This document shows positions 2,034-42,663 of a DNA stretch of 43,166 bases, one piece after another; positions within the stretch are counted from its first letter, which is position 1, and each line of letters opens with the position of its first letter. The translations under genes and the position numbers were made by a program. Source of the DNA: an uncultured Pseudomonadota bacterium (lineage in GTDB: Bacteria; Pseudomonadota; Gammaproteobacteria; Steroidobacterales; Steroidobacteraceae); NCBI GenBank assembly GCA_903890265.1, contig CAITAM010000086.1, positions 1 to 43,166 of the forward strand, given 5' to 3'. The notes below the pieces were generated by a model. It was not told the origin of the DNA. It did no database searches and saw only the letters and a program-made list of their open reading frames with translations.

Positions 2034-2320
2034 GGTGTTGACCGCTCCGTACTTGAGAACGCCTGGACCGCCCCGGAAACCGGGCGCCAACGTCAAAAAT
2101 GATCTCTATATTGGGCCATCCGCGGGTGCTTTGGCAGCATTGACGGCGCGCGCCGCGCGTGGTCCGGCGCGGCCGGCGGGCGATTCGACCGCGTACCGTC
2201 CAGGGCAGCGGATACCCGTCTCGCGCTAATTCGTGCCTAAACTGCTGCCGCGGGTTCAGGACAGGGCGCTCCCTGCCGACCAACCCGGGGATAAGCCGCG
2301 CAGCCGTTGGGACAGCCACC

Positions 2321-11163: not shown

Positions 11164-11244
11164 TATTAAAGAAACTCCTCAGTTACACCGCGCCGTCGAC
11201 GCCACCGGCCACGCCCGGGCGACTGGCCCTTCCGCCCCATGTCG

Positions 11245-18111: not shown

Positions 18112-19173
18112 TTACCGCGCAAACGCGTCCGTCGCGGCCACGAGCGCCAGGCGAGTGCCCTTCTCAAACGCGGAGTGGCCCGCGTCGGCAATGACGTGCA
18201 GCGTCGACTCCGGCATGGCGCGGTGCAGGTCCCAGGCGCTGCGCATGGGACAGACGACGTCGTAGCGACCCTGCACGATCACGGTCGGGATGTGCCGGAT
18301 CTTGTCCACGTTCGCGAGCAGGTGATCGTCGGTGGCGAAAAAGCCACCGTTGACGAAATAGTGGCACTCAATGCGCGCAAACGCGGCGGCGTAGCCCGGG
18401 TTCCTGAACTGCGCGACGTAATCGGGGTTCAGGTGCAGGTAGCTCGTCGCGCCTTCCCAGATCGACCACGCCCGGGCTGCCTCGATCAGCGTTGGCCGGT
18501 GGTCACTGGTCAGACGCCGGTAGTAGGCGGCCATCATGTCATGGCGTTCCGCCTCGGGAATGGGCGCGACGTACTGTTCCCAGAGGTCCGGGAACAGCGA
18601 CGCGGCGCCGCGGGGGTCCTGGTAGAACCACTCGAGCTCCGTCCGTCGCAACATGAAAATCCCGCGCAGCACGAGTTCCGACACGGACGTCGGGTAGACC
18701 TGCGCGTAGGCCAGTGCGAGCGTCGAGCCCCACGAGCCGCCGAACACCTGCCACTGGACGATACCGAGGTGGACCCGAAGCTTCTCGATGTCCTCGACGA
18801 GGTCCCACGTGGTGTTCTCGATGAGGCTGGCGTGGGGCCGACTCCGACCGCAGCCACGCTGGTCGAACAGCACGATCCGATAACGCTTGGGATCGAAGAA
18901 GCGCCGCATCTTGGGATCGGTGCCGCCACCCGGCCCGCCGTGCAGAAAGACCACGGGCTTGCCGCGCGGATTGCCGCTCTCTTCGAAGTAGATCTTGTGC
19001 AGTGGCGAGACCCGCAGCATGCCGCTGCGATAACAGTCGATCTCGGGGTAGAGGTCTCGCGGGCGGGCGAGACGCACCGCTTTCTTCGCACGGCTCGCGA
19101 CAGCGCGGCCACTCGGGGCGGTACGTGCGCCAGAGGCCAACTTTCGCCGCACGGCCGTTCGCTTGGTCGCCAT
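18112..19173 (-). CDS. pip: Proline iminopeptidase
   Basis: It reads YPEIDCYRSGML...VVFLHGGPGGG...LFDQRGCGRS...FGGSWGSTLALAYA...RGIF. The start is taken at MATKRT. Confidence 0.9.
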   Translation of the reverse strand: MATKRTAVRRKLASGARTAPSGRAVASRAKKAVRLARPRDLYPEIDCYRSGMLRVSPLHKIYFEESGNPRGKPVVFLHGGPGGGTDPKMRRFFDPKRYRIVLFDQRGCGRSRPHASLIENTTWDLVEDIEKLRVHLGIVQWQVFGGSWGSTLALAYAQVYPTSVSELVLRGIFMLRRTELEWFYQDPRGAASLFPDLWEQYVAPIPEAERHDMMAAYYRRLTSDHRPTLIEAARAWSIWEGATSYLHLNPDYVAQFRNPGYAAAFARIECHYFVNGGFFATDDHLLANVDKIRHIPTVIVQGRYDVVCPMRSAWDLHRAMPESTLHVIADAGHSAFEKGTRLALVAATDAFAR

Positions 19174-19322: not shown

Positions 19323-20306
19323 TCACCGTCGTTTCAGCGATTCAACGAGCCCAAGCCAGTTGCCGTAAAACGCTTCGGCAGCCGCCGCCCAGCGATGGGT
19401 CGCCGAGGCCAGCGCGAGGTCGAACGGAAAATCCGCCAGCCGCGTCGACGCCGGAGCCGCACGCGCCCGCTCGGCGAATCCGTCCAGCGCCGCCCGCGCG
19501 GCCGGGCCGAAGTAACCCTCCGGCTCTGCGGGGTACGTCGCACGCTCGCCGGCGAGGAACCGACCGACATCCCGCCGGAATTCGCGCAGCAGCGTATCGG
19601 CGAGATACTCGGGATGCCCCTGGCAGAACACCAGCAGGCTTCGTGACTGCTTGGCAAAGAGGTCCGCGCCGTTGTCGGCGGACGACGTCAGCATCTCGTA
19701 GCCCGCACCGACCAGATCGGGCAGCCGGATTTCGTTCCAGCGGGAGTGCGGCGTCAGCACCACCTCCGGCAGTCCCTTGAGCAACGCATGGCCGGACTGG
19801 CCGGCGTGCTCAAAGACGCCGCTGCGCTTCTCGGCAAGCCGGATTCTCGGCACACGGTCGAGCCGCCACACGGCCGCGTGGGCCGCAAGGCACGACCACA
19901 GGCTCGTCGGCAGGTGCCCGTCGGCGTACTCTAGCAAGTCGCAGAGGCTCGACCAGTACGGTTCGTCCTCCACGTGCCCGGCTTTTGGCTCCGTGCCCGT
20001 CACGATCAGGGCATCGGGCGCCGATGCGGTGAGCGCGGCCAGGCTCCAGTACCGGCCGTCCATATGGCGTGCGACCGCGTCGCCGCGGACGATGCCGTCG
20101 AGGCAGGCGTAGCGAACCCTGATACGGCGGGTACCGGCACCGGCAGCGAGCAAGCGCGTGAACTGCCGCTCCGTGCCAAGCAGGGCACTGTCCGGCATGT
20201 TGTTCACGATCCCGATGGTCAGCGCGGCACCGCGGTCGTGGTCGACCGCCAGTCCTCGCCCCTCGGCGGCTGGCTGCCCTGGCGGCAGATCGATCTCGAT
20301 GGACAC
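19323..20306 (-). CDS. metA: MetA-family homoserine O-acyltransferase
   Basis: It reads LTIGIVNNMPD...LIVTGTEP...SCLAAHAAV (Cys) ...PHSRWNE...CQGHPEY...NWL. A GTG start at 20306 follows AGGAAG with a 5-nt spacer. Confidence 0.8.
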   Translation of the reverse strand: MSIEIDLPPGQPAAEGRGLAVDHDRGAALTIGIVNNMPDSALLGTERQFTRLLAAGAGTRRIRVRYACLDGIVRGDAVARHMDGRYWSLAALTASAPDALIVTGTEPKAGHVEDEPYWSSLCDLLEYADGHLPTSLWSCLAAHAAVWRLDRVPRIRLAEKRSGVFEHAGQSGHALLKGLPEVVLTPHSRWNEIRLPDLVGAGYEMLTSSADNGADLFAKQSRSLLVFCQGHPEYLADTLLREFRRDVGRFLAGERATYPAEPEGYFGPAARAALDGFAERARAAPASTRLADFPFDLALASATHRWAAAAEAFYGNWLGLVESLKRR

Positions 20307-20383
20307 GCAAACTTCCTGAATCTGGGCGCAGCGGGCGGCGCCGGGGCAGCACGGCTTCAACTCGCCACGAGTGAGCCGGTCAT

Positions 20384-20408
20384 CGTTGCCCCTCATAATA
20401 TGGCAACG
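20384..20408. promoter_or_regulatory. 7-N11-7 inverted repeat CGTTGCC-cctcataatat-GGCAACG enclosing a -10-like CATAAT/TATTAT; candidate operator/promoter
   Basis: Read directly. It sits in the only AT-rich patch of the 367-bp divergent region between the metA-like and ATP-grasp genes. AATATGG recurs 29 bp away (20426-20432). Confidence 0.25.
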
Positions 20409-20673: not shown

Positions 20674-21909
20674 GTGCCCCTTATGCCCACCTCATCGCCG
20701 CCCGTTGCCGTGTTTGATGACACCTGGTCACCCACGCTGACGTTCACGTACTCGCTGGGGCGGCGCGGGGTACCGCTGCACTTCTACGGCAGCGGCTCCG
20801 GCCAATGGACCCGCTTTCGTCATACGAGGGCCGCTTGCCCGCCACCCGGTCTGCCGGACGAATTCCTGCCCTGGCTTCAGGAGAAGATCGCCGCAGGTAC
20901 CATCGCCCGGATCGCGCCGACCAGCGACCTCATCGCCTATTACATTTCGGCGCTGCGGGACCATTTTCCTCGCGACGTGGCCCGGGCGATCGCACCGCTC
21001 AGTGAGATCGAGGCGTGCCTCATCAAGTCGCGTTTCGCCGACCGGTGCCTGTCCGTGGGCTGCGAGACACCGGCCGTCGCGTCGCCGACCGGACTGGATG
21101 AGGCCCTCGAGGCGGCCGAGCGCCTGGGCTACCCGGTCATCCTCAAGCCCAAAAGTCACCTTGGACTCGGCTTCGCCGAGCGTGGCTCGATCGCGCACAG
21201 CGCCGACGAGCTGCGGCAGCAGTTCCGCCCCTACTCGGTCCAGTCGGGACAGAACTATTTCCTGTCCCGCTATCCCGAGTTGCCGTGGCCCTTGCTGCAG
21301 AAATACCTGCCCGCGGCGCAACGGCGGGTCTACAGCGTGTCCGGAGTCCGGGATCGCGACACGGGTATCGTCTCCGCGGCCGTGTCCTTCAAAGGCGAGC
21401 AATGGCCCCCGGGCGTCGGCACGAGCATTCGGCAGGTGGGCGTCAACGACCCGCGTATCCTCACGGCCGGGCTCGGCGTCGTCGAGCACTTCCTGAGTTC
21501 AGGCATCTTCGAACTCGAACTGGTGGAGGATGCCGACGGCGGACTGAACGCGATTGATCTCAATCCGAGGGGCTTTGGTTTCATGGGGCTCGACCTCGCC
21601 CGAGGCCAGGACCTGCCGTGGCTCTGGTACTCGAGCACGTTGCACCCGGTGACGCCACTCGACCAGAGCACCCTGATCGACGCCGTGGAAGCCGTTCCGC
21701 CCGCGATCGGCCTCTGGGTGCTGCTCGCCAATTCGATCGCCGGGCCGTCGAAAAAGCGCGCTATCGTTTCCATGCTGGGGCACGGCGCAGACCCTGCGCC
21801 CCTCGTGCGCAGCAACCTTGCCCACCTGAAGCACCCTCGCAGCCTGCTTCGCGCCCAGTGGCACGCCTACCGGACGCACCGGGATCGGCTGGCCCCGGCA
21901 GCGCCTTAA
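20674..21909 (+). CDS. ATP-grasp-fold ligase (carboxylate-amine/thiol ligase type)
   Basis: It reads GYPVILKPKSH...LLQKYLP...YSVSGV...FELELVEDADGGLNAIDLNPR. The start is GTG 20674 or ATG 20683. Confidence 0.7.
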   Translation: MPLMPTSSPPVAVFDDTWSPTLTFTYSLGRRGVPLHFYGSGSGQWTRFRHTRAACPPPGLPDEFLPWLQEKIAAGTIARIAPTSDLIAYYISALRDHFPRDVARAIAPLSEIEACLIKSRFADRCLSVGCETPAVASPTGLDEALEAAERLGYPVILKPKSHLGLGFAERGSIAHSADELRQQFRPYSVQSGQNYFLSRYPELPWPLLQKYLPAAQRRVYSVSGVRDRDTGIVSAAVSFKGEQWPPGVGTSIRQVGVNDPRILTAGLGVVEHFLSSGIFELELVEDADGGLNAIDLNPRGFGFMGLDLARGQDLPWLWYSSTLHPVTPLDQSTLIDAVEAVPPAIGLWVLLANSIAGPSKKRAIVSMLGHGADPAPLVRSNLAHLKHPRSLLRAQWHAYRTHRDRLAPAAP

Positions 21910-22937
21910 GGCAACGGACCGTCGCCCGCCGCGCCCGATACCCGCCGCGCGTACTGGCGCAGCAGCGTCAAGGACGTGTCCCAGCCGTTGATCAGCGTGT
22001 CGAACGACGAGTAGTCCAGTGCCTTTTTACTGCTCACCGATCGCGCACCCTTCAATACCAGCGCCTTGCACAGCGTCGACATCTCATCGTGCAGCTGCAC
22101 AAGCTCGGCGCGCTCGGGCGCACCGTCCGCGAACAGCCACTCGAAGTACCGCGCGGCCAGGTCGCACATCGCGCCGAGCTGGCGGAAATTGGCGAACGCC
22201 CAGGCGTGGTAGTACTCAAGGCCCCGCTCCTGCAAGCGCGGCAATTCGGCACGCAGCCGGTCGGTAAAGCCAATGACAGGATTGCCGACCGGTCGCCGGC
22301 TGATCTCACGCAAGAGATGCCGTGCCGATCGCTCGCGCAGGTCCCGTCCACTCATCCGCCGCACGCGATCGACGTGGACGACTTCCGCAAATAACGGCAT
22401 GTACTCGGCCGACGGCTCCGCGTCGAGGCGAAACGTCGCGCGGTAGTCCGCGCCGCCCAGACGGAAGTATCCGCCGTTGTGGAAGTAGCCGAGCGTCCCG
22501 GCCCGGGGATCGATCTCGGCGAGAATAATCGTCGACTTCGTGTGCTTGCGCTGGTAGTCCGTCCCGGCGGTATCCGGCAGCCAGAAGGCGTCTGCTTCCG
22601 TGCTGATCAGACGCCCCTCGCCGAGGTAGTCCAGCGCGTGCTCGTGCAGCGTGCGCCAGACGTTCATTTCCTGCACGTCCACGCCGTACAGCTCGAACAG
22701 GTCCGTGTGCGCGGGCTTGAGAAAGGTCCACTGGTCCCCGTCAAAGTGCAGCGACACCGTGACCGGGAGCATGGCATGCGGATCCAAGCCGAGGGAATGG
22801 ACGAGCTCTATCCAGACGTCCACGTAGCAGTTCTTTTCGGGCCACGCGGACGATTCGCCGTGCAAGGCGTGCCGTTGGTAGCCGTCTGCCGAAAGACCCG
22901 CGATCGTCTGCCGGAGCGACTCGCCGTCGGTGCTCAT
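21906..22937 (-). CDS. DUF1839-family protein (unknown function)
   Basis: It reads GESSAWPEKNCYVDVWIELVHSLGLDP...FWLPDTAGTDYQRKHTKSTI...GYFHNGGYF. I recognise the family from memory. The ATG at 22937 lies 2 nt after the ligase stop. Confidence 0.65.
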   Translation of the reverse strand: MSTDGESLRQTIAGLSADGYQRHALHGESSAWPEKNCYVDVWIELVHSLGLDPHAMLPVTVSLHFDGDQWTFLKPAHTDLFELYGVDVQEMNVWRTLHEHALDYLGEGRLISTEADAFWLPDTAGTDYQRKHTKSTIILAEIDPRAGTLGYFHNGGYFRLGGADYRATFRLDAEPSAEYMPLFAEVVHVDRVRRMSGRDLRERSARHLLREISRRPVGNPVIGFTDRLRAELPRLQERGLEYYHAWAFANFRQLGAMCDLAARYFEWLFADGAPERAELVQLHDEMSTLCKALVLKGARSVSSKKALDYSSFDTLINGWDTSLTLLRQYARRVSGAAGDGPLP

Positions 22938-22939
22938 GC

Positions 22940-23854
22940 TCAGAGACCCAGCTTGGTCCGAACCGCACCGGGCCATCGGGCGGGATCAAAGCCGTGGGTT
23001 TTGAAGAGTGCGATGACGATTCGCTCGAGCCCGAAGCCCAGGCAGGCGGTACTCGCGGGCTCGCCGCTCGGCAGGACGATATCGAAGGCAGAGCCGAAGT
23101 ACTGCTGGTGGTAATTGAAGGAACACACGGCGGTCGGCGAGTCACCGTCGTTGACGGGCACGAGCACCTCGAATTTCAGCTGCTGCTGTGCCTGGCTCGC
23201 CGCCATGATCTTGCCGGCCCGGCCGAAAAAAGGATCGGACGCGACGTCGGACACGGCGTCGAGCCCGAGCGATTGGAGGAGCGTGAGGCCACGCTGCAGC
23301 CACATGTCCCGCCACTCCACCACCTGCGCCGGGGTGCCGACCCGGACGAATTCGCGCACCCGAAACGATTGCATCCGCGTGGGCTGCGGTGACGGCTCGT
23401 GACGAAACACCCAGTTGAACATCGTCACGAGATGGCCACTGTCCGGCACGACACCGGTAAAGCTCGGGTAGACCGGGTAGCAGGCCGCCGGATTCAGCAC
23501 GACATCGGTCATCTGCAAGAGGTCGCCCCACGGCTCGCCCGCGGCAATGCGTTGCGAAAAGCCCTTGGAACCGCGTTCATCGCCGAAATAACTGCATACC
23601 GCGCCACACAGGTGCGGGAACGAATCCATGTAATTGAGTTTCTCGATGATCTTGCGGCTGATCACCGGCGGGAACACGCAATAGCGCGCACCGTCGTCCC
23701 TCGAAATCTCATCGACCAGCGCGTTGAACCGTGCCAGCACGAGCTCGAATACCGCACCCCGGCCGAATGCTCCCTGGACACCGACGGGGATGATGAGGCC
23801 GTGCTCGACCAGACCATCGTACAGGGACGTCGGGGGGGCGCTTGCTCCGCTCAT
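22940..23854 (-). CDS. Amino acid:[carrier protein] ligase; class-II aaRS catalytic core (SerRS-like) without a tRNA-binding arm
   Basis: The protein is only 304 aa. Motif-2-like sequence is FRHEPSPQPTRMQSFRVREF and motif-3-like sequence is GFGLERIVIALF. Cys/Glu/Cys candidates (PAACYP, FRHE, AVCSFNYH) match the Zn site described for this family. Confidence 0.8.
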   Translation of the reverse strand: MSGASAPPTSLYDGLVEHGLIIPVGVQGAFGRGAVFELVLARFNALVDEISRDDGARYCVFPPVISRKIIEKLNYMDSFPHLCGAVCSYFGDERGSKGFSQRIAAGEPWGDLLQMTDVVLNPAACYPVYPSFTGVVPDSGHLVTMFNWVFRHEPSPQPTRMQSFRVREFVRVGTPAQVVEWRDMWLQRGLTLLQSLGLDAVSDVASDPFFGRAGKIMAASQAQQQLKFEVLVPVNDGDSPTAVCSFNYHQQYFGSAFDIVLPSGEPASTACLGFGLERIVIALFKTHGFDPARWPGAVRTKLGL

Positions 23855-23867
23855 AGCTCGGTCTCCG

Positions 23868-25037
23868 TCAGTCGTCCTTGACCACGAGCAGCAGAGACGC
23901 GCTCTTCGCTGCTATGCGCTCATTGGAAACCATGAGCGATGCCGATAGCAGGTCCCGGTAATGCCGGCCCACGGAAAACGGCGAGTCGTTCTTATAGCCC
24001 ATCAGGCCGGCGATCTGCAGCGCCTGATGCACGATCCGCGGGCCCGCCTCCGAACAGGCGCACTTCAGCTGGTTGAAGCGCAGGGCCCAGTTCATTGTAG
24101 TCAGTTCCTCGCGTCGGCCGGCGTCAGCCGAAATCTCGTCGAACTCCGCCGCCACCTGCTGCCAGTTATGGCGCATGGACTGCAGGTCCTGGCTGACACG
24201 GGCGAGCAGGATGGCCGAGGGCGGCGTTTCGCCGATTCGCTTGCGGGCCTCCGCGCGAACCACCGCACTTGCCCTCGACACGGCGTCGGCCGCGATCCCG
24301 GACCAGAGTCCAGCCCAGAGCACGTGCGAGTAAGGGACCATGGTGACGGCCGACGAGTCGGCGTAGGACCCGGGGATGATCTGATCGACGTGGCCGCTGG
24401 ACTCGAGCTTGAACCCCGGACTGACGGTCCCGCGCATGCCGAGCGGGTCCCAGGTGGACGTCTGGGTCAGGGTGTAATCGTCCTTCTTCACGAGCACGAG
24501 CACCTGGTCGCTCGCCGGTGACTCGGCCGTGCGGCGGCAGGTGACGAGAATCCCGTCCGCATGGCCGCAATACGATCCCGTGGTCGCGTCCTTGTTGAGC
24601 GTGAAGCGATCGCCGGCAATGTCCACCGCACAGATGCTGGAGCGGGTATCGCCGTAAGTGCCGACCTCCGAGGTCATCGAGGCGAGCAGCCACTGATGCT
24701 CGACGAGGCCGCGCATGTAGTCCTGAAAGTAGGCGGAGTGGGCGCCATGGCGGGCAATGCACCCGACCTGGATGTGGTGCATGGCAAGCACCATGCTGCT
24801 CGCGCCACAACCCTGGCCCAGGGCCGCGCACATGGCGGCGAGATCGCGAAGGCCCATGCCGGCGCCGCCAAACTCCTCCGGTACCGCGGCAGACAACGCC
24901 TTCTCGGCGCGCAGCGCCGCGAGGGTCTCGACCGGGAAGCGTGCGTGCCGATCGACGTCCGGCGCGTGTTTGCTGGCCACGTCCGCGGCGATCTGCTTCA
25001 TCCTGTCGATCATCGGATGTCGGTTCGGCATGGCCAT
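23868..25037 (-). CDS. Acyl-CoA-dehydrogenase-fold flavoprotein
   Basis: It shows the ACAD three-domain pattern (RFPVETLAALRAEKAL..., WDPLGMRGTVSPGF, GRHYRDLLSA). The RBS GAGAGGA fits the second Met (25031) better than the first. Confidence 0.85.
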   Translation of the reverse strand: MAMPNRHPMIDRMKQIAADVASKHAPDVDRHARFPVETLAALRAEKALSAAVPEEFGGAGMGLRDLAAMCAALGQGCGASSMVLAMHHIQVGCIARHGAHSAYFQDYMRGLVEHQWLLASMTSEVGTYGDTRSSICAVDIAGDRFTLNKDATTGSYCGHADGILVTCRRTAESPASDQVLVLVKKDDYTLTQTSTWDPLGMRGTVSPGFKLESSGHVDQIIPGSYADSSAVTMVPYSHVLWAGLWSGIAADAVSRASAVVRAEARKRIGETPPSAILLARVSQDLQSMRHNWQQVAAEFDEISADAGRREELTTMNWALRFNQLKCACSEAGPRIVHQALQIAGLMGYKNDSPFSVGRHYRDLLSASLMVSNERIAAKSASLLLVVKDD

Positions 25038-25174: not shown

Positions 25175-27688
25175 TCAGTTCGTCCAGTGCAGCACCCGTT
25201 CGCGAGTTATGTTCGCTGCCCGAAGGATCAGGCGACTCCCGAGCGGCAACCCGTTGCCCGCGAGCACGAGGCGCAGCGCAGCGCTGCCGGGCAGCAGGTC
25301 CACGTAGTTGTCGGAAAACGTGGCACCCGGCAGTTCCAGCGCAAGACCACGGACGTAGCGCGAAGCACTGACGATCAGCGCGGCCTGGTCGTGGTCTCGA
25401 TCGACCGTGATCGACACGTCATCCCATCGCGCCGAGGGGACGTCGACACCCGGCGGGCGGTACCCGCACTCGGCCAGTACCGCGCCCTGCCGATCCCGGA
25501 GCCTTGCTACGACGGTGTCATGCACCGGGGGGCCGAAGCGGTACACGTAGGACAGGTCCTGCCAGGTGTCGAACAGCTCGTTGGCGGATACGACCACGGT
25601 TGCGTGTGCCGCGATCTCGATCGGTGCCGAGCCGATCGTGCCGACGGGCGTTCCATCGCGGTACGTGGTCACCTCAAGGTGGCCCTCGACGACACCGGGC
25701 CGGTCGCTGGTCACGCATAGCGCAAGGCCCGCGCAGCCCCGGTCGGCGATGGTGACACCGAGCGGCTGGAGCACGCGGCGCAGCCCGTACCACGCCGCCT
25801 TCGGCCGGCCCGCGGAGTCGAGGATGCCCCAGCCGGCACCGGGCCACAGGTCGCGCAGGAACAGCACCAGGGCTCCCCGGCAGCGTGACGGTCCGCTTCG
25901 CCACTCGGCCATCGTCGCGGCCATCAACTCCGCGCTGACCAGCCGGCTGAGCGCGAGGTAGCGCTCGTGATCGGCGTAGCGCACGGCAGCAGGCGCCATG
26001 CCAAAGAGCTGCGCGAAATAACGATCCCGGACGTCATCAAAGTCCCAGCCCGCCCCGAGATCGCGTGGCGCACGCTCGTGCCACCTCGCCTGGTGAACAC
26101 GACTGTCCGCGCCGGGCAGCATTTCATCGAGCGAGTCGCGCTCCGGCACGTTGGCGAGAGCGAGGCATTCGGTCGCAAAGACCGGCGCGTCGTTCCGTCG
26201 CTCGTGCATCGAGAGCTGGTACGCGCCCACGCCGTAGTAGGACGTCGTGCCAGACGAGGGATCGTGCGGGAACGACCCGCCGTGCGCGCTCGACGGCCAG
26301 TACGGCACAGCGGGTGACAGCGATCTTGCGAGCTCGGCGATGGGGCCGTGAAAGAGCGTCGGAGTCCACAACTCCCGCTGCGTGCCCCACATCGCAGCCT
26401 GCTGCTCGACTTCGCTGTTGCCGCAGATCACGGCAAGGCACGGGCGGCGACGGAGATCCGAGATCGTCTGGCGTACCTCCTCGGTGACGGACTGCAGGAA
26501 ATCGCCATCATCGGCCGGATAATCCATGTTGGCGAACATCAGGTCCTGCCAGACAAGAATTCCCCTGGCGTCGCAGGCATCGAAGAAGGCGTCGCTCTCG
26601 TAGGTCATCGTGCCAACGACACGGACGGTGTTCATTCCGGCCGCCGCCACCAGGGACAGCATGCGCTCGTACTCGGCGGCCGTTGCGGTCAGCGAGACGG
26701 GATCCGGGGGTGTCCAGCAGACGCCACGGCAGAATACGGGCACGTCGTTGATGAACAGGCGGAATTCGGTGGCCGTGGTCTGCAGCGAGACGCGGCGAAA
26801 GCCGACGGCACCGAGGTCGACCTCGCTGCCGTCTGCCGCGCACAGGTACGCGTCGTAGAGCGCCGGCTCCCCGTGGGTATGGGGCCACCATTTCGCCACG
26901 TTCTCGACACGAAGTACCGCCGTGGCCGCTTGGTCGGCCGACACGTCGATGGGCGCGCTGAATACCTCGCCCAGTCGCCTGAGCTCAAGCCGCAGGCCGT
27001 CGCACCGATCGCCATCGCAGCGCGCACGAAGCGCCAAGACGCCGGTCGTGCCCTCGAGCTCGCAGTCAAGGTCGATCGCCGACAGGGACGACCCGGCCGA
27101 CGTGCCGAGCCAGACGTCGCGCCACGGACCGACCGCGGCCGCGGGCGGCGACCAGCCGGGAGTACGCCCGAGCAATGTCGTCCGCCACCAGCGCAGCTGC
27201 TGGTTCTCGACCATGGGCGTGCGCCAACGGGGCCGTGGCCTGCGCTCCTTCAGCAGACGGTCAAGCGCCGCGAAGCGAATGACGAGCGCATGGGCGCCGG
27301 GTTCCGGCGAGCCGAGCGGCAGTTCGTGGCGCAGGAACATGTTGCGGCTGGAGAGGAGCTCCCGATCATCCAGCCAGACGGTGGCGGCCGTGGCGAGGCC
27401 GTCCAGGCCGAGCGTCAGCGGGGCTCGTGGTGCCGGGACGTCGACGCGGACCCGGTACCACCAATCCACGTCGTCGAAACGACGTGGCGGACCGTTTAGC
27501 GACCACCGACCGAGGGCGCGCAGCGACGCCGCGGCGGTCGACGGGACGGTTGTAGGGAGCCACTCCGGGCCCGCACTGGCGACGTCCCGCGGGGTCACGC
27601 ACTGGCCGGCCGGCGTGCAGCAGAACTCCCAGTCGTCATGCAGGCGCCGGACGGCCGCGAACCTCGTCCCGAGACGGCGCTGCTCCAT
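25175..27688 (-). CDS. Glycoside hydrolase family 2, beta-mannosidase-like; no signal peptide
   Basis: It reads DWWYRVRV...NTVRVVGTMTYESDAFFDACDARGILVWQDLMFAN...ICGNSEVEQ...FATECLA. Both Glu-containing motifs are present. Confidence 0.8.
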   Translation of the reverse strand: MEQRRLGTRFAAVRRLHDDWEFCCTPAGQCVTPRDVASAGPEWLPTTVPSTAAASLRALGRWSLNGPPRRFDDVDWWYRVRVDVPAPRAPLTLGLDGLATAATVWLDDRELLSSRNMFLRHELPLGSPEPGAHALVIRFAALDRLLKERRPRPRWRTPMVENQQLRWWRTTLLGRTPGWSPPAAAVGPWRDVWLGTSAGSSLSAIDLDCELEGTTGVLALRARCDGDRCDGLRLELRRLGEVFSAPIDVSADQAATAVLRVENVAKWWPHTHGEPALYDAYLCAADGSEVDLGAVGFRRVSLQTTATEFRLFINDVPVFCRGVCWTPPDPVSLTATAAEYERMLSLVAAAGMNTVRVVGTMTYESDAFFDACDARGILVWQDLMFANMDYPADDGDFLQSVTEEVRQTISDLRRRPCLAVICGNSEVEQQAAMWGTQRELWTPTLFHGPIAELARSLSPAVPYWPSSAHGGSFPHDPSSGTTSYYGVGAYQLSMHERRNDAPVFATECLALANVPERDSLDEMLPGADSRVHQARWHERAPRDLGAGWDFDDVRDRYFAQLFGMAPAAVRYADHERYLALSRLVSAELMAATMAEWRSGPSRCRGALVLFLRDLWPGAGWGILDSAGRPKAAWYGLRRVLQPLGVTIADRGCAGLALCVTSDRPGVVEGHLEVTTYRDGTPVGTIGSAPIEIAAHATVVVSANELFDTWQDLSYVYRFGPPVHDTVVARLRDRQGAVLAECGYRPPGVDVPSARWDDVSITVDRDHDQAALIVSASRYVRGLALELPGATFSDNYVDLLPGSAALRLVLAGNGLPLGSRLILRAANITRERVLHWTN

Positions 27689-27697
27689 GACTGGGTG

Positions 27698-27964
27698 TTA
27701 CCCGGCGTCGACCAGTTTTTCGACCGCCGCCTGGATCGTCGCAATGCTCGTAAAGACGCCCCGGGTCAGCATCTGGTCGGGAAACTCGATGCCAAAGTGT
27801 TCTTCAAGCGCCAGCATGACGTTGACCGTCGCGTGGGACGTCAATCCGTGGGCACTGAGTTCGGCATCGCGCGCAATGGAACTCGCTGGCGCGGCGAGCC
27901 GCCCGTGCTCGGCAAGAATCTGGCGAATGCTCTCGTCCTGTTGCTCTTTACTGCTCATGTCCAT
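27698..27964 (-). CDS. Stand-alone acyl/peptidyl carrier protein
   Basis: The 88-aa protein reads ...GLTSHATVNVMLALEEHFGIEFPDQML..., an ACP helix II pattern with a candidate phosphopantetheinyl Ser. Its stop lies 9 nt before the GH2 ATG. Confidence 0.8.
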   Translation of the reverse strand: MDMSSKEQQDESIRQILAEHGRLAAPASSIARDAELSAHGLTSHATVNVMLALEEHFGIEFPDQMLTRGVFTSIATIQAAVEKLVDAG

Positions 27965-28154: not shown

Positions 28155-29096
28155 ATGATCTCCTCCAGCCCGGTCCGGCGCTTCTGGCTGGCGGCAGCAG
28201 CCCTCGCGGCTGTCTGCGCGTTTACGGGTCGCGAATGGCTGATCGCCTGGCGCACGGCCAGGGCCGACTTTGCGGGCCACACCGCCGATGCGACGGCGCC
28301 ACGCTGCGCCAGCGCCCGCTCACCCGACCCGATCACGTTCGGCGTGGCCGGTTCCGGTGCGCTGCACGGCTGGTACTCGGCCTCGCGGAACGGTGCCACC
28401 GTGATCGTGCTGCACGGCTCCGGGTCGACGGCGGCATCGATGGTCGCGGAAATGTGCCTGCTCGCCGGCGCCGGATTCGGCGTGCTGGCTTATGACAGTC
28501 CGGGCTTTGGCGAGAGCCCGGGTCACGTCCGCTGGGCCGACGACGAGGAAGCCGCGTTTCACCGTGCCGTGGCCTGGATCGAGGCCCGGGACCCGATGCG
28601 GCCCGAGGCGATCGGCGCCCTCGGATTCTCCATGGGAGCCTACGTGCTGACCTGCGCCGTCGGGCGCGAACCGCGCGTGGGTGCCGTGGTGCTGATTGCC
28701 TCCCCCGATGACCTGCAGCGCCAGATCCTTCACGAGTCGGGGTCATTCCCCGTGCTCAAATGGCCGGCGGCGTACCTGGCGTCGCGCTACCTGCGCGGGC
28801 TTCCCGCTGACAACCGCCAGCCGATAGACTGCATCTCTGACATCAGCCCGCGGCCCCTATTGATGATCCGAGGAGTAAACGACCGCGTCGTACCGGAGGC
28901 CGCCACGACCGCGCTGTACGCGCGCGCGCGGGCACCGAAGGATCTTTGGCTCGTGCCGTCGGCTGGGCACGGAGGCTATCTAGAGGCCGCGCCGCACGCG
29001 TACCCCGAGCACCTGATCGGCTTTTTCGATCGCGCGCTTCGCGCAGCACCCGGGCCACGGACGAGCGAACCGGCGCACGGCGGGCGCAGCCCGTGA
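28155..29096 (+). CDS. Membrane-anchored alpha/beta hydrolase (canonical Ser nucleophile)
   Basis: This is the in-frame tail of track ORF 26922..29096, starting at MISSSPVRRFWLAAAALAAVCAF (TM). Motifs are VIVLHGSG, GFSMGAY and SAGHGGY. Confidence 0.8.
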   Translation: MISSSPVRRFWLAAAALAAVCAFTGREWLIAWRTARADFAGHTADATAPRCASARSPDPITFGVAGSGALHGWYSASRNGATVIVLHGSGSTAASMVAEMCLLAGAGFGVLAYDSPGFGESPGHVRWADDEEAAFHRAVAWIEARDPMRPEAIGALGFSMGAYVLTCAVGREPRVGAVVLIASPDDLQRQILHESGSFPVLKWPAAYLASRYLRGLPADNRQPIDCISDISPRPLLMIRGVNDRVVPEAATTALYARARAPKDLWLVPSAGHGGYLEAAPHAYPEHLIGFFDRALRAAPGPRTSEPAHGGRSP

Positions 29097-30850
29097 CGCT
29101 GCCGGTCGACTTCCTCTACCTTGGCGGCTGCGCCGTCCGGCTGCACCGGGCGTCCGGTCCGCGAGCAATCGTCATCTGCCCGGCGCTCGGCGTGGAAGGG
29201 TTGGTGCTGCACCGGATCGTCCACGACCTCGCGCAGTCACTGCAGCGGGACGGCCACCCGGTACTGGCTATCGACTACCCCGGGACCGGGGATTCCAGGG
29301 ACACGGAGGCGTCCGCCGACCAGGTGCCGCTGTGGGTCGACGGTGTCGTCCGGGCCGTTCAGTTCCTCAGACACCAGCCCGGGGTGCGGGACGTGGTGCT
29401 GGTCGGATTCGACCTGGGCGCCTTGCTGGCGGTGTTGGCGGCCGCGCGGACGGCCGTCGCTGGCGTTGCCCTCGTCGGCCCGCCGGGCAGCGGCCGCGCC
29501 TTCGTCAGGGCGCTGGTGGCCCGTCAGGCGGTCAACGGGGCACCGGACGAGGCATCACGGGTCACCGGCACCCGCGGCGACCTGGAAATCAACGGCTTTG
29601 TTTACAGCGCCGCAACGCTGTCCTCGCTCGAGACCATCACCGTCAAGGACTTGCCGCGTGCACCGGCGCCGGACGTCCTCGTGCTGGGGCGTGGTGGCTG
29701 GGCCCCCGAGGAGCGCCTCTGCCGCGAGTTGCAGTCGCTCGGCGCCAACGCCCGGCTGGAGACGCTCGCGGGCTATGCCGACATGCGCTGGCACTCGACG
29801 TTTTCGGTGCTCGCCCCGGAGGCCTTCGTCGGGCTTCGCCGGTGGCTTGCGGCGCTGCCCCCCTCGGCGAACGAAGCGCCATCTGCCCATGACGAACCGG
29901 CCGATACCCTGGCGGGCCTCGGCTGGGAGGAGTCGCCGCGAACGTTCGGGCACGGTTGCCTGCTGCGCGGCGTTCTCTGCACGCCGGCGCAACGCACGCC
30001 GGACGTCTGCGTTCTGATCATCAATCACGGCGCCAATCGCCGTATCGGCTGGGGTGGAATGTACGTTCCGCTCGCACGGCAACTGGCGGTGCTCGGAATC
30101 GCGTCCTTCCGAGTGGACCTGGCCGGCCTCGGCGACAGCGACCGACGGCCCAACCAGGCCGATCGGGCGCTCTACGACACCGATTACTTTGAGGACGTCG
30201 AGACGGCGCTGCAATACCTGCACGAGCAGGGCTTCGGCCGACTCGCACTGCTGGGTCACTGCAGCGGCGCGTACCATGCCTTTCACGCCGCCTCACGGAA
30301 TCCGCGCGTCATCGCACTCGCGCTCGTCAATCTCGCGCTCTTTCACTGGATTCCGGGCACCTCGCTCGACGAATCCGAGCGAAAGAGCGCAAAGCGCCTC
30401 GGATGGTATGTCGCCGAGGCGGTCAATCCCGCCACGTGGCGGCGGCTGGTCAGCGGCCGGATCAACGTCGGCCACATCGCGAGCGCCTTTGCGCGCCGCG
30501 CGGGCCGGCTGATCCGCGTCCGTGCCAGTGCCGCGCTGCCCGCGTCCACCGGGACCGCGATCAGTGTCGTGGACACGTTCCGCGGGTTCTCGGCGCGCGG
30601 CACACGGGTACTCGTGGTCTACAGTGACAACGATGGCGGCCTTGACGAGTTCTCTCTGCACTGCGGCCGCGGCGGCCGCCGGGTGCTGCGGCTGCCCGGG
30701 GTGTCGCTCGCGTTGCTGCCGGGCGCCGATCACAACGTTTCCGCGCAGAGCGCGCGGGCGCTGTATTTCATCTACCTGCAGCAGTTCCTTGCCGAGGCGG
30801 CCGGCCTGCCGCTCAGCGTGCGACCGGCCAGCCCGTCGCAGTCCGTCTAG
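29093..30850 (+). CDS. Two-domain alpha/beta-hydrolase fusion (resembles the exosortase-A-associated hydrolase 2 + hydrolase 1 pair)
   Basis: A GTG start overlaps the upstream stop (GTGA, coordinates per the ORF track). The N-terminal half reads VICPALG...DYPGTGDS...LVGFDLGALLA. The C-terminal half reads LIINHGAN...DLAGLGDS...LLGHCSGAYHA...VYSDNDGG...PGADHN. Confidence 0.7.
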   Translation: MTLPVDFLYLGGCAVRLHRASGPRAIVICPALGVEGLVLHRIVHDLAQSLQRDGHPVLAIDYPGTGDSRDTEASADQVPLWVDGVVRAVQFLRHQPGVRDVVLVGFDLGALLAVLAAARTAVAGVALVGPPGSGRAFVRALVARQAVNGAPDEASRVTGTRGDLEINGFVYSAATLSSLETITVKDLPRAPAPDVLVLGRGGWAPEERLCRELQSLGANARLETLAGYADMRWHSTFSVLAPEAFVGLRRWLAALPPSANEAPSAHDEPADTLAGLGWEESPRTFGHGCLLRGVLCTPAQRTPDVCVLIINHGANRRIGWGGMYVPLARQLAVLGIASFRVDLAGLGDSDRRPNQADRALYDTDYFEDVETALQYLHEQGFGRLALLGHCSGAYHAFHAASRNPRVIALALVNLALFHWIPGTSLDESERKSAKRLGWYVAEAVNPATWRRLVSGRINVGHIASAFARRAGRLIRVRASAALPASTGTAISVVDTFRGFSARGTRVLVVYSDNDGGLDEFSLHCGRGGRRVLRLPGVSLALLPGADHNVSAQSARALYFIYLQQFLAEAAGLPLSVRPASPSQSV

Positions 30851-39514: not shown

Positions 39515-40300
39515 CTAGCCGGCCTCGTGGCGGTCAGCCACCACCCGGGCGAGTTGCGCCAGCGTGGTCGTGCTCTTCATGTCCTCGTCGCGCAGGGCTA
39601 CCCGGTACTCGTCCTCGATCGCCAGCAACAGACGCAGGGCACCGAGCGAGTCCCACTCGGGCAGCGTCGCCGGGCTGTCCCCGGGACCCGGCCGGACGGG
39701 CAGACCCAGAATCCGCTGGGCAAGGGCCTGAATGTCGATCTCGTCATCCGTTTCGGTGCTCTGATCTCGCTGGCGGGCAGGCACGCCCGCAACGCTCGTC
39801 CCTGCGGCGACCGTGCCCGAGACCATGCTGCCGCTCGCCACCGTACAGCCATCGCCAAGCGTTGCGCCGCGCAGCAGTGTTACCCGGGCACCGATCGTCA
39901 CGTCCGCGCCGATCACAATGGGCGCCGATTCACCCTCGGCCTTGCGGTCACTGACCGAGTGGAAGTCGCTGTCCATCACCGTGCAATACGGTCCGAGCAC
40001 GGTCCGGGGTCCAATGCGGACCGCGACCCGCGCCGAAATGGCGCCCCCGTAGGAGACGTGCACGTCGTTACCGAGGTCGATCACGCCTCCGCCGATCGTC
40101 ACCAGGTGAGACGGCGACGGATGAGAACAGATCGTCACCCGCGACCCGAGGGTTATCCTGCCGTCGTTCGATATTGTTGGGCGCCCTTCACACCGGACGC
40201 CCTCCCCGACCTCGTTGACGTCACGCAGCCAGCGGCGTTGCGAACGCTGGCGCAGCCACCCTCGCCACCCGGACTCTCCTCGGCCACGGGCCGCGGTCAT
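39515..40300 (-). CDS. Left-handed beta-helix (hexapeptide) acyltransferase fused to a C-terminal carrier-protein domain
   Basis: Hexapeptide repeats are IGADVTIGARVTLLRGATLGDGCTVASGSMV. After a linker comes LPEWDSLGALRLLLAIEDEY, a DSL phosphopantetheine-site pattern. The ATG overlaps the upstream stop (ATGA). Confidence 0.75.
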   Translation of the reverse strand: MTAARGRGESGWRGWLRQRSQRRWLRDVNEVGEGVRCEGRPTISNDGRITLGSRVTICSHPSPSHLVTIGGGVIDLGNDVHVSYGGAISARVAVRIGPRTVLGPYCTVMDSDFHSVSDRKAEGESAPIVIGADVTIGARVTLLRGATLGDGCTVASGSMVSGTVAAGTSVAGVPARQRDQSTETDDEIDIQALAQRILGLPVRPGPGDSPATLPEWDSLGALRLLLAIEDEYRVALRDEDMKSTTTLAQLARVVADRHEAG

Positions 40301-42663
40301 GCCGGACCCGGCATCGACAGGTCGACGACATCGGGCAAGGCGTAGGGCTGCGCGGCATCCCAGACGAATCGGTTCTCGTCCGTCGCCGCGAAACCGGATC
40401 CTTGCCAGAACGTGAGGCAGGGCTTGTTCTTTGCCGTCGGCAGGTACTGGGCGACGACGCGCTCCGCCCCTGCCTCACGCGCCCGTGCGACAGCAAAGTG
40501 CACCATGGATTCCTCGACCCGCCGACCCATGACGCGGCAGCTGAGGACGAAGTCCACGATGTGCAGGTCGGTGCCACGACGCTCAAGACCCAATAGCCCG
40601 GTCAGGCCCGCCTCACCGAGCCGGTCGGCGACGCTGATGGTCCAGAAGGACTGCCCGGGCGTGGCAGCCCAGGTCGTGAGCTCGGCTTCGGTCAACCTTC
40701 GTGTCGCGAGGTTGAGCTGGTTGGTCTTGTTAAGGAGCTGCGTCGCGCGCACGACGTTGTCCGGCCCCAGAGGGCTGGCGGACACGCGGATACCGAGCTC
40801 GCGAAGCCACTCGTCCACGGAACCCACCTGGGCCTTGAGTGCCTCGCGCTGCCGCTCATCGGCGTACATGCGCGTGCGCTCAAGATCCTCGCGACTGCGC
40901 GATGGCGCGTCAAAGCAGCGCAGGGCTTCCAGCGTGCTGCGGTAGAGGAACGGGCTCTTCGGCCACTCGGGCACGAGCACCTCGGGCAGCGCATGGCGGA
41001 CCCGGGCACGCTCAACGGGGTTGTCGTCAATGAAAACGATGGACTGCAAGCCCAGATTCAGCTGTGCTGCGAGCTCAGCGATATTGGCCGCCTTGTCGCG
41101 CCAGTTGATTCGCCAGCCGACGAAGTCGTCAACGCCGAGCTTCATGCCGGGGTGGTTCCTGATTGCCTCGAGCGCGACCGATTCCTCATTCTTGCTGACA
41201 ATCGCGAGCACCACACCGCGGCGCTTGAGGTCGCGAATCGCCGACTGAAAGTCGGCGTAGGCCTCGCCGACCCCATCGAGCCCCCCGAGGCGCAGGTTCT
41301 CCCACCCGGCATCGCCAACGATGCCACCCCACAGCGTATCGTCCAGATCGAGGACGAGCAGCTTGCGTGGACCACCGCTCAGGCTCGCCAGACCGGCGCG
41401 AATGTCCGCCGCCGCCTCACGCAGCACGTCGCGATGAAAGGCCATCTTGCCGAGGTACCAGGCCTTGGTGTTCCACGCCTTCGGCCCGACGGTCATCAGC
41501 CATCGGCCGGCGTCGAGTACGTAGACGTTCGGGAGCTCGGCAAGCGAGGTCATCAGCCGCAGATTCATTCTGGCGAGCACGCTGCTCGCCCCCTGGGTGC
41601 GGCCGTTCGTCAGGCCAAAGCCCCGACGCCAGGGCGGCTGGGCCCACGAGGCCACAAACACCGTCCGGTAGTGGTCCGCGCCACGCCGGATCAACGCGCA
41701 GAAGGCATCCACCTCCGCGTCCACTGCCGCGAGTTCCACGTCTTCGTAGGCGAGCAGACGGCCGAACGCCGGGACTGCCGTCTCGGCAAGAGTCCAGACG
41801 ACCGCGAAGTCAGCGCCCCCGGGCGGCGGCTCCGTAAGAAGCACCTGGGCGACCTGCGCGTAGGGCGCGATGACGGAGGTGTATCGTGAGCCATCCTCGG
41901 GGTCGGCCAGGTCCAGTGCGAGCTCGTCGATCGTGAAATCCGCAACGAGGTGCCCACCGCCCCGGGCGGGCACGTCCGTCGCCGCGACGGGCGGCGGGGT
42001 GGCACTCGGTTGGGTCGCTGCCGCCGACTCTCCCGGCTTCGCGAGGACGCGGGCCGGTATGCCTCCGGCCATCGTGTTGGGTGGCAGATCGGTCTCGACG
42101 ACACTGCCGGCCATGACAACGGTGCCGTCACCGATTTTGACGCCAGGCCTGACCGTGACACGACCGGCCAGCCAGACGTTCGCGCCAATCTCGATGGGCC
42201 GGGCGGCGGCCGGATCGATCTCACCGACGGCCTCCGGCACATCAATGTCGGAGATGATGCAAAACTGCCCGATCATGGTGCCGGCGCCGATTCGCACCCC
42301 GCGCGCCGCGGCGATGACGGAGCCGTAGTTAACCCAGACCCCTTCTCCCACGTCCATCTGCGCGGAGGGACCGACCTGGAACTCGGTGGGAACCCAGGTC
42401 GAGGTCACGGCGACGCGCGGCCCGATGACCAGCCGGCCCCGGTTCTCGACCCGTACCGGTCCCACGGCGCGCACCCCGTGACCCAGTGACTGCGCGCGCC
42501 GGAAAGCCCAGCGGGCGCGTATACGGGCCACGAGCCCCAACGCGATGCCACTCAGTCGCTCGGCGACGGACCTCTCGGGATCCGACTTCAGGCGCGCGAG
42601 CAGTTGCTGAAACGTGCCATGGGAATCGCCTGACGTCATACCAAGTTCCATTTCAGTCGACAT
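40297..42663 (-). CDS. Tri-domain fusion: hexapeptide acyltransferase + FkbH-like HAD-IIIC domain + C-terminal GNAT-like domain
   Basis: The N-terminal part reads IGANVWLAGRVTVRPGVKIGDGTVVMAGSVV. The middle part reads LLVLDLDDTLWGGIVGD...AIVSKNEE...VFIDDNP. The C-terminal part reads LLNKTNQLNL...FVLSCRVMGRRVE. Confidence 0.85.
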   Translation of the reverse strand: MSTEMELGMTSGDSHGTFQQLLARLKSDPERSVAERLSGIALGLVARIRARWAFRRAQSLGHGVRAVGPVRVENRGRLVIGPRVAVTSTWVPTEFQVGPSAQMDVGEGVWVNYGSVIAAARGVRIGAGTMIGQFCIISDIDVPEAVGEIDPAAARPIEIGANVWLAGRVTVRPGVKIGDGTVVMAGSVVETDLPPNTMAGGIPARVLAKPGESAAATQPSATPPPVAATDVPARGGGHLVADFTIDELALDLADPEDGSRYTSVIAPYAQVAQVLLTEPPPGGADFAVVWTLAETAVPAFGRLLAYEDVELAAVDAEVDAFCALIRRGADHYRTVFVASWAQPPWRRGFGLTNGRTQGASSVLARMNLRLMTSLAELPNVYVLDAGRWLMTVGPKAWNTKAWYLGKMAFHRDVLREAAADIRAGLASLSGGPRKLLVLDLDDTLWGGIVGDAGWENLRLGGLDGVGEAYADFQSAIRDLKRRGVVLAIVSKNEESVALEAIRNHPGMKLGVDDFVGWRINWRDKAANIAELAAQLNLGLQSIVFIDDNPVERARVRHALPEVLVPEWPKSPFLYRSTLEALRCFDAPSRSREDLERTRMYADERQREALKAQVGSVDEWLRELGIRVSASPLGPDNVVRATQLLNKTNQLNLATRRLTEAELTTWAATPGQSFWTISVADRLGEAGLTGLLGLERRGTDLHIVDFVLSCRVMGRRVEESMVHFAVARAREAGAERVVAQYLPTAKNKPCLTFWQGSGFAATDENRFVWDAAQPYALPDVVDLSMPGPA

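Follow-up and report, generated by a model that had tools for sequence, protein, structure and literature searches.

Positions 28155-30850 of the stretch of DNA analysed here (43 kb, from an uncultured Steroidobacteraceae bacterium; hereafter the window) hold two overlapping genes on the plus strand, which we call H1 and H2. The main subject of this analysis is H2, which encodes a protein with two alpha/beta-hydrolase-fold halves, the C half with a putative Cys-His-Asp triad and the N half with no conserved nucleophile. The features are as follows.

28155-29096, plus strand: H1 gene, ATG start and TGA stop, 313 amino acids (aa), Ser alpha/beta hydrolase
28629, plus strand: Ser159 in the GFSMG elbow of H1, predicted from the sequence and from conservation in metagenome locus L001 to form a triad with Asp243 and His272
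29093-30850, plus strand: H2 gene, GTG start, 585 aa, two-domain alpha/beta-hydrolase-fold protein
29093-29917, plus strand: N half of H2, TIGR03101-like domain without a conserved nucleophile
29405-29419, plus strand: GFDLG elbow of the N half (Asp107, codon 29411-29413)
29918-30850, plus strand: C half of H2, TIGR03100-like putative catalytic domain
30254-30268, plus strand: GHCSG elbow of the C half (Cys390, codon 30260-30262)
30623-30640, plus strand: SDNDGG of the C half (Asp514, codon 30632-30634)
30722-30733, plus strand: GADH of the C half (His547, codon 30731-30733)

The sequence CCCGTGACG at 29093-29096 is common to both genes, a 4-nt overlap (GTGA) between the GTG start of H2 and the TGA stop of H1. 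An orthologous H1/H2 pair in L001 (42% identity) has the same 4-nt overlap in the form ATGA, so that the overlap did not arise by chance. Since the N-termini of the homologues also align there, the GTG at 29093 is considered to be the right start of H2. The gene for an acyl carrier protein (ACP) lies 190 bp upstream of H1 in the divergent orientation, an arrangement also found in L001 and in locus L109, and a scan of the H1-ACP intergenic region for promoters and terminators gave no result. The coordinates of the open reading frames (ORFs) confirmed the divergent, overlapping arrangement described in an earlier note on this DNA, which had been made from the sequence alone.

Pfam detected two separate alpha/beta-hydrolase stretches in H2, and the AlphaFold model built from 27 sequences (predicted local distance difference test score, pLDDT, 83.9; predicted template modelling score, pTM, 0.86) has two alpha/beta domains, in agreement with the two halves and the two elbows, GFDLG and GHCSG, of the earlier note. 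In this model Asp107 and Cys390 are each placed at a strand-turn-helix elbow (Cys390 between strand 383-389 and helix 391-402), and both positions align to the nucleophile Ser of serine hydrolases in the PDB (for the N-half elbow, for example, 9pir). The matches in PDB sequence and fold searches with H2 were single-domain Ser lipases and feruloyl esterases; among the 50 best fold matches listed there was no two-domain analogue, only generic single-domain Ser hydrolases. A hidden Markov model (HMM) of each half also matches the other half, which indicates that the halves are paralogues. The top NCBIfam match of the N half was TIGR03101, named 'hydrolase 2, exosortase A system-associated' (51.0 bits; whole H2, 71.0), below the curated cut-off of 202.75 bits, and that of the C half was TIGR03100, the corresponding 'hydrolase 1' (75.7 bits; whole H2, 101.2), below the cut-off of 168.45 bits. 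H2 thus fuses the two families in one ORF, in the order TIGR03101-like and then TIGR03100-like. The models expected by the earlier note were therefore the best ones for the respective halves, but because both scores are far under the cut-offs, H2 is by sequence a distant relative of the TIGR03101/TIGR03100 pair and not a member of it. H2 has neither a signal peptide nor a long hydrophobic segment at its N-terminus, and so would be cytoplasmic.

A residue census was taken over 175 members of the H2 family aligned to one HMM. Cys390 and His547 were Cys and His in all 175 sequences, and position 514 was Asp or Glu in 167. On this evidence the C half has the Cys390-His547-Asp514 triad proposed in the earlier note, conserved family-wide. 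At position 107, the N-half elbow, the residue was Arg in 162 sequences (93%), Gln in 6, Asp in 3, Gly in 3 and His in 1. The three carriers of Asp107 are the window protein and two near-identical sequences, and a sister clade (P0003-5) with the same gene cassette and the same H1-H2 coupling has Gln at this position, which therefore cannot be a required nucleophile. The earlier note had put Asp and Cys at the nucleophile elbows; the placement of both residues was correct, but Asp107 is not a conserved nucleophile. The 175-member alignment contained no conserved His or acid in the N half that would complete a triad. The polar residues conserved in this half are H18, C29, E35, R41, R59, D61, D67, S68, R107, R139 and E140, and the half looks more like a binding module than a dead scaffold.

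A word-indexed search with H2 returned 27 relatives and first suggested a rare fusion, a view that was overturned by an exhaustive HMMER search. Run against 1.84 billion representatives, the profile matched 7,081 proteins at E <= 1e-30, single-domain relatives included, and the best 150 of these all aligned over both halves in one full-length match (all at least 546 bits, mostly 554-685 aa). Two of the 150, P0035 and P0145, are longer: one, of 1,184 aa, has two tandem copies of the whole two-domain unit, and the other, of 1,019 aa, is extended by 430 aa at its N-terminus. When plasmid and chromid records were searched by tblastn, full-length copies of H2 were found in Azospirillum, Rhizobium, Shinella, Burkholderia, Cupriavidus metallidurans CH34, Mycetohabitans and Methylobacterium, annotated, where an annotation was given, just as 'alpha/beta (fold) hydrolase'. 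The Burkholderia cenocepacia match in the plasmid collection (H36) may be identical to Bcam1334. Full-length H2-type genes are also annotated in cultured bacteria in RefSeq. Judging from these sequences, the two-domain fusion is a widespread architecture and not peculiar to the window, which the earlier note had read as a variant.

The halves also occur as separate proteins, encoded by overlapping genes in the same order as in H2. Variovorax paradoxus VAI-C has overlapping genes for a TIGR03101-like protein of 272 aa (GARLG) and a TIGR03100-like protein of 314 aa (GMCSG), with two nonribosomal peptide synthetase (NRPS) genes and a phosphopantetheinyl transferase gene before the pair and polysaccharide export genes after it. 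In locus L101, right after a polyketide synthase (PKS), the gene of a GTRLG protein of 254 aa overlaps that of a GLCSG protein of 292 aa; the locus also has a genuine XrtA-system deacetylase (TIGR03006, 324 bits against a cut-off of 276). Locus L100 has both partner types among condensation-adenylation-thiolation (C-A-T) NRPS modules, and a separate type II thioesterase gene (PF00975) beside one hydrolase pair. All the split partners of the N-half type that were read have Arg at the elbow (GARLG, GTRLG, GLRLG, GLRVG) and are partnered with GxCSG proteins. The GxCSG motif was present in 13 of the 13 single-domain TIGR03100-like proteins read, and the ten of these that were scanned against NCBIfam matched TIGR03100 at 56-101 bits, all under the cut-off. 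Since all the sequences obtained score under the cut-offs, the nucleophile residues of canonical TIGR03100 and TIGR03101 members are extrapolated from these relatives.

On the other side of the H1-ACP intergenic region, the window carries the following genes.

27698-27964, minus strand: ACP, with a PP-binding domain (PRK07081, 97.7 bits against a cut-off of 72)
25175-27688, minus strand: beta-mannosidase-like protein of glycoside hydrolase family 2 (GH2) (Glyco_hydro_2_N2, 55 bits; PDB beta-mannosidase 5n6u, 2e-47)
23868-25037, minus strand: acyl-CoA-dehydrogenase-family flavoprotein (ACAD) (Acyl-CoA_dh_N, _M and _1)
22940-23854, minus strand: amino acid--[ACP] ligase like an aminoacyl-tRNA synthetase (aaRS) (PRK07080, 387.4 bits against a cut-off of 357)
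21906-22937, minus strand: DUF1839 protein (PF08893, 325 bits), predicted papain-like, carrier-protein-dependent amide synthase (CcbD/CtaG-like)
20683-21909, plus strand: ATP-grasp protein, flanking the cassette
19323-20396, minus strand: MetA-like acyltransferase (336 bits, just below the MetA-model cut-off of 358)
18112-19173, minus strand: prolyl aminopeptidase (TIGR01249, 457 bits)

Both the ligase and the ACP beside H1 and H2 score above the cut-offs for an amino acid--[ACP] ligase system. In the scanned ORFs of the window, there was no match to an exosortase, an adenosine-monophosphate ligase (AMP-ligase) or a pyridoxal-phosphate (PLP)-decarboxylase, although an exosortase could be encoded elsewhere in the genome, outside these 43 kb. 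The best matches of the window export genes are the EpsE/F/G/L (XrtB-type) models, under the cut-offs. The window thus differs from an XrtA/PEP-CTERM locus with a TIGR03098 ligase and a TIGR03099 decarboxylase, and its earlier description as an exosortase-A-type locus was not borne out.

In 24 non-redundant loci we surveyed the gene context within about 10 kb of the hydrolase, whether fused or split. Carrier-protein loading genes were present in 19 of them, and the loci fell into the following groups.

About 11-13 loci: cassette of ACP, ACAD, a ligase that couples amino acids to carrier proteins (aa:CP ligase), DUF1839 and GH2, whole or truncated where the locus ends (Azospirillum lipoferum 4B, Mycetohabitans endofungorum, Phyllobacterium, Methylobacterium bullatum, two Cupriavidus)
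3 loci: ACP, TIGR03098-like ligase (567 bits), TIGR03099-like decarboxylase (413 bits) and ATP-grasp (Shinella, Rhizobium)
2 loci: other adenylating enzymes and ACP (L006, Roseateles)
3 loci: NRPS or PKS with split pairs (Variovorax, L100, L101)
5 loci: no loading enzyme, inside Wzx/Wzy-type exopolysaccharide (EPS) clusters (R. tumorigenes, twice; B. cenocepacia; B. gladioli; Burkholderia JSH-S8)

The GH2 and ACAD genes are kept across the cassette loci. The H2 and GH2 genes share 4 nt in Azospirillum and Mycetohabitans, within a six-gene operon that stands apart from EPS genes. The NRPS and PKS genes of the three loci with split pairs have no thioesterase domain listed, and in the B. gladioli locus an ACP gene lies about 7 kb off, in a separate fatty-acid gene cluster. 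Locus L005 has two fused hydrolases (1701-3668 and 10001-11953), the first preceded by a second ligase-like gene and an ACAD fragment. In a reverse test, three DUF1839 loci were picked only for their long contigs, without regard to hydrolases, and all three have a two-domain hydrolase of 584-630 aa together with an ACAD-family gene and a gene of ligase size, which in L109 was confirmed as PRK07080; an ACP gene was called in two of the three, and a DegT-type aminotransferase gene, of the kind making amino sugars, was found in two of the three.

The Shinella fused H2-type hydrolase stands with a near-canonical XrtA-type set of AMP-ligase, ACP and decarboxylase. Since fused hydrolases occur both with this set and with the aaRS-like ligase, the loader swapping is real, and the replacement of the AMP-ligase by an aaRS-like ligase that the earlier note had read in the window is upheld. 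In the reverse direction, 80 genome loci that surround TIGR03098-like ligases were searched for related hydrolases within 8 kb, and even when the HMM thresholds were relaxed only three loci, of Shinella and Rhizobium, had one; since most such loci are without the hydrolase, the ligase and the hydrolase pair are not obligatorily linked. Within this set (L025-L099), most of the loci from Agrobacterium, Bradyrhizobium, Phreatobacter and Hyphomicrobium are without it. H2 therefore resembles the TIGR03101/TIGR03100 pair in the order of its halves, which the adjacent, overlapping split genes share, in the XrtA-system deacetylase found near one split pair, and in the TIGR03098- and TIGR03099-like neighbours of some fused members; unlike that pair, it is fused, scores below the cut-offs, and has an aaRS-like loader with ACAD, DUF1839 and GH2 partners.

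In 2010, aaRS-like aa:CP ligases were reported to charge carrier proteins, and their gene neighbourhood was reportedly noted by Mocibob et al. in that year. The DUF1839 family, to which we take Atu2574 to belong, is much more conserved than H2 (about 52-55% identity across thousands of clusters), with an invariant cysteine in EKNCY (Cys37) and several invariant His. The part of the study by Aravind and co-workers that concerns the neighbourhood of these ligases lists a ligase, an ACP, a redox enzyme, a 'highly conserved uncharacterised protein' (Atu2574) and a glycosidase, and predicts the aminoacylation of a cell-surface amino sugar (PMC2922099). This is the same gene set as the window cassette, and the two-domain hydrolase is not mentioned in that passage. 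The biological role of aa:CP ligases was still described as unknown in a 2022 review (PMC9437257). The AlphaFold model of DUF1839 (pLDDT 91) matched CcbD, CtaG and AziU3 in Foldseek with probability 1.0 and template modelling (TM) scores of 0.5-0.6; a Pfam scan at E up to 5 gave no second family, so that structure comparison alone was informative. CcbD and LmbD move carrier-protein-bound proline to a catalytic Cys and then to the amine of an amino sugar (PMC12945683), and CtaG is a papain-like ligase acting with carrier proteins (PMC12865890). By its modelled fold, DUF1839 probably passes the aminoacyl group to an amine acceptor, which fits the 2010 prediction, in the passage cited above, that the conserved uncharacterised ORF makes an amide with the cell-surface amino sugar (PMC2922099).

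On balance, and with moderate confidence, we favour a role in which H2 uses a Cys thioester to unload acyl or aminoacyl groups from the carrier, probably in the course of sugar-polymer synthesis, and delivers them to an acceptor or to water, with the N half as a docking or acceptor-binding partner. In such a scheme, the aaRS-like ligase would charge the ACP with an amino acid, which the ACAD-like flavoprotein may modify, and Cys390 would attack the acyl- or aminoacyl-S-phosphopantetheine, forming an acyl-S-enzyme. His547 would then activate the acceptor, either water or an amine or hydroxyl group on a sugar or lipid-linked intermediate, and the N half would dock the carrier or bind the acceptor instead of serving as a second catalyst. 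Transfer or release is preferred over proofreading because of the tight coupling of H2 to the cassette and because L100 already has a separate type II thioesterase; editing in that locus may be covered by the thioesterase, leaving release or transfer for the hydrolase pair.

By mechanism only, the nearest precedents for such a role would be CmaE, SyrC and CouN7. All three have the alpha/beta-hydrolase fold, and CmaE and SyrC use a catalytic Cys; CouN7 has the hydroxyl of a sugar as its acceptor, and the CouN7 pathway also includes a ligase, a carrier protein and an ACAD-like oxidase. The three enzymes collect an acyl or aminoacyl group from the thioester of a carrier protein and transfer it onwards, CouN7 handing a pyrrole acid unit to a free-standing substrate (PMC8748450). 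Unlike H2, they are single-domain proteins of secondary-metabolite clusters and are not known to have an Arg-bearing second domain without a nucleophile. The C half of H2 also shares its Cys elbow and its His/Asp triad with polyhydroxyalkanoate (PHA) synthases and dienelactone hydrolases, in which the Cys nucleophile lies in a lipase-box-like elbow and is completed by His and Asp. PhaC gave no Pfam or NCBIfam match to H2 at E <= 0.01 and was not among the 60 best PDB sequence matches or the 50 best fold matches listed, and the sole match to Pfam DLH (26.6 bits) was on the N half, residues 42-126, with no stretch passing alone and the Cys elbow uncovered.

A more specific form of the favoured role is a tentative possibility: a composite transferase in which the N half, with Arg or Asp at its elbow, would hold the acceptor or dock the acidic ACP, the Cys half would carry the acyl group, and H2 and DUF1839 together would form the downstream half of the aa:CP ligase pathway. 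If true, this would assign the pathway, the role of which has been open for 15 years, to the aminoacylation of cell-surface polysaccharide sugars, and the 'hydrolase 1 / hydrolase 2' pair of exosortase-A loci would be a Cys enzyme and its nucleophile-less partner. Two downstream Cys enzymes, the two-domain hydrolase and the CcbD-like DUF1839, can now be tested for the aaRS-like ligases, and the operon is shared with cultured Azospirillum, Mycetohabitans and Phyllobacterium and, by tblastn, with Cupriavidus and Methylobacterium. The family signature, a Cys-His-Asp domain together with a domain with Arg at the nucleophile position, joins a very large set of proteins that are annotated just as 'alpha/beta fold hydrolase' to the exosortase-A hydrolase 1/2 pair and to NRPS and PKS genes for which no thioesterase domain is listed. 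If these proteins are off-loading transferases, they would offer a route to aminoacyl- or acyl-modified exopolysaccharides and represent a new kind of trans-acting release enzyme.

Several observations weigh against the favoured role of H2. In 5 of the 24 loci there was no loading enzyme inside about 10 kb. The triad of the C half is a prediction drawn from conservation and elbow placement. The window H2 departs from the family at four charged positions that are at least 90% conserved (R59A, R107D, E140A and R322G), and may behave unlike typical members; the sister clade retains R59 and E140, and the four replacements suggest an altered or relaxed N-half pocket in the window lineage. A literature search found no paper on the H2 family and no biochemistry for any member, and no paper combining exosortase, ACP, decarboxylase and hydrolase; the TIGR numbers were met only in the paper on the B. 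cenocepacia Bep cluster. Moreover, its model makes DUF1839 a strong candidate for passing the group to an amino sugar in this cassette. H2 therefore need not acylate a sugar here, which weakens the assumption of the earlier note that it does, and its step may be hydrolytic or a second transfer of another kind.

The alternative that survives best, though we consider it rather unlikely, is that H2 is a hydrolytic thioesterase that frees the carrier, by proofreading as in type II thioesterases or by product release, with DUF1839 doing the productive transfer. H2 accompanies every type of carrier-protein loader whatever its chemistry, as would be expected for an enzyme recognising the carrier arm, and the cassette already has a transferase in DUF1839, modelled as CcbD-like with its invariant Cys and His. 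Type II thioesterases are stand-alone alpha/beta hydrolases acting on acyl-S-carrier proteins, with Ser in GHSxG (PMC8748450), and differ from H2 in this Ser and in their single domain. An invariant Cys in place of Ser and a conserved second domain would be unusual in a simple hydrolase, and L100 has its PF00975 thioesterase beside one of the pairs. Editing thioesterases are also more often dispensable accessories, whereas H2 co-occurs tightly with the cassette (three of three in the reverse test) and is translationally coupled.

It is less probable still that H2 is an esterase, deacylase or acyl-remodeller of the polysaccharide itself, independent of the ACP, and that its linkage to ACP genes only reflects shared polysaccharide loci. 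The five Wzx/Wzy-type EPS clusters that have a fused hydrolase and no loader would be explained in this way, and in the Bep cluster of B. cenocepacia the TIGR03100-flagged Bcam1334 adjoins an Acyl_transf_3 gene (PMC3584217). However, the predicted cytoplasmic location of H2, the placing of the Azospirillum and Mycetohabitans six-gene operon away from EPS genes, and the split pairs that directly adjoin NRPS or PKS genes do not agree with such a function. We regard as very improbable a protein with both halves active, in which Asp107 (as in haloalkane dehalogenases and epoxide hydrolases) and Cys390 would serve as nucleophiles in two covalent steps. Asp107 is exactly at the elbow, and the five closest relatives of H2 have an invariant WHSTF motif containing His234, which falls where an alpha/beta hydrolase would be expected to have its catalytic His; the predominance of Arg at position 107, the Gln of the sister clade with its identical cassette and H1-H2 overlap, and the missing acid/His triad of the N half argue against it. 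Finally, the chance that H2 is a pseudogene in decay, or that an error in assembly or sequencing has joined two genes, is negligible: nothing direct favours it beyond the loss of some conserved residues in the window H2, the identical 585-aa ORF on 16 contigs from several metagenome samples shows that it is not a frameshift artefact, and the full-length two-domain form of the best 150 representatives, the full-length RefSeq genes of cultured bacteria and the intact C-half triad support the single real gene of the earlier note.

H1 has the GFSMG elbow given in the earlier note and matches Abhydrolase_1 (6e-17), Hydrolase_4 and Peptidase_S15 in Pfam. Its Ser159, Asp243 and His272 are kept in the L001 orthologue, and GFSMG is present in the L109 orthologue (37% identity). 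Its match to TIGR03100 reached only 15.5 bits, and by sequence H1 is a generic serine hydrolase and not the 'hydrolase 1' of exosortase loci. At its N-terminus, two Arg precede a stretch of about 15 hydrophobic residues (about 22 in the L109 orthologue), suggesting that the catalytic domain is exported or N-terminally anchored; the stretch could be a cleaved signal peptide instead of a membrane anchor, and H1 may trim or deacylate a substrate outside the cytoplasm. An orthologue occurs in three lineages (the window, L001 and L109) among about 15 loci with the ligase cassette, and H1 is an optional accessory translationally coupled to H2. A link between H1 and the Asp/Gln variant of H2 was considered and rejected, because L109 pairs an H1-like gene with an Arg-type H2.

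Among the neighbouring genes, the GH2 protein has no signal peptide apparent by eye, and its GNSE and TE, aligned to 5n6u, sit where the two catalytic Glu would be expected from the GH2 motifs. The peptidase and MetA-like genes recur in L001, and the MetA-like gene also in L006. At 40297-42663 on the minus strand, a 788-aa protein fuses a hexapeptide-repeat acyltransferase to an FkbH domain (TIGR01686, 284 bits); by its domains it would give this EPS locus a second means of loading a carrier protein, with no adjacent ACP gene visible. L002 and L003 have an FkbH_N gene beside a PP-binding gene. The adjacent minus-strand genes at 8737-11163 and 11245-13704 each encode about 810 aa, with a flavin adenine dinucleotide (FAD) amine-oxidase domain fused to a GcvT-type aminomethyltransferase domain, and their products resemble dimethylglycine or sarcosine dehydrogenases; any tie to the reported preference of aa:CP ligases for glycine or alanine would be speculation only. 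At 2159-3730 on the plus strand lies a gene for a GGDEF diguanylate cyclase (TIGR00254, 162 bits), which may regulate the EPS locus although the EPS genes are about 25 kb away.

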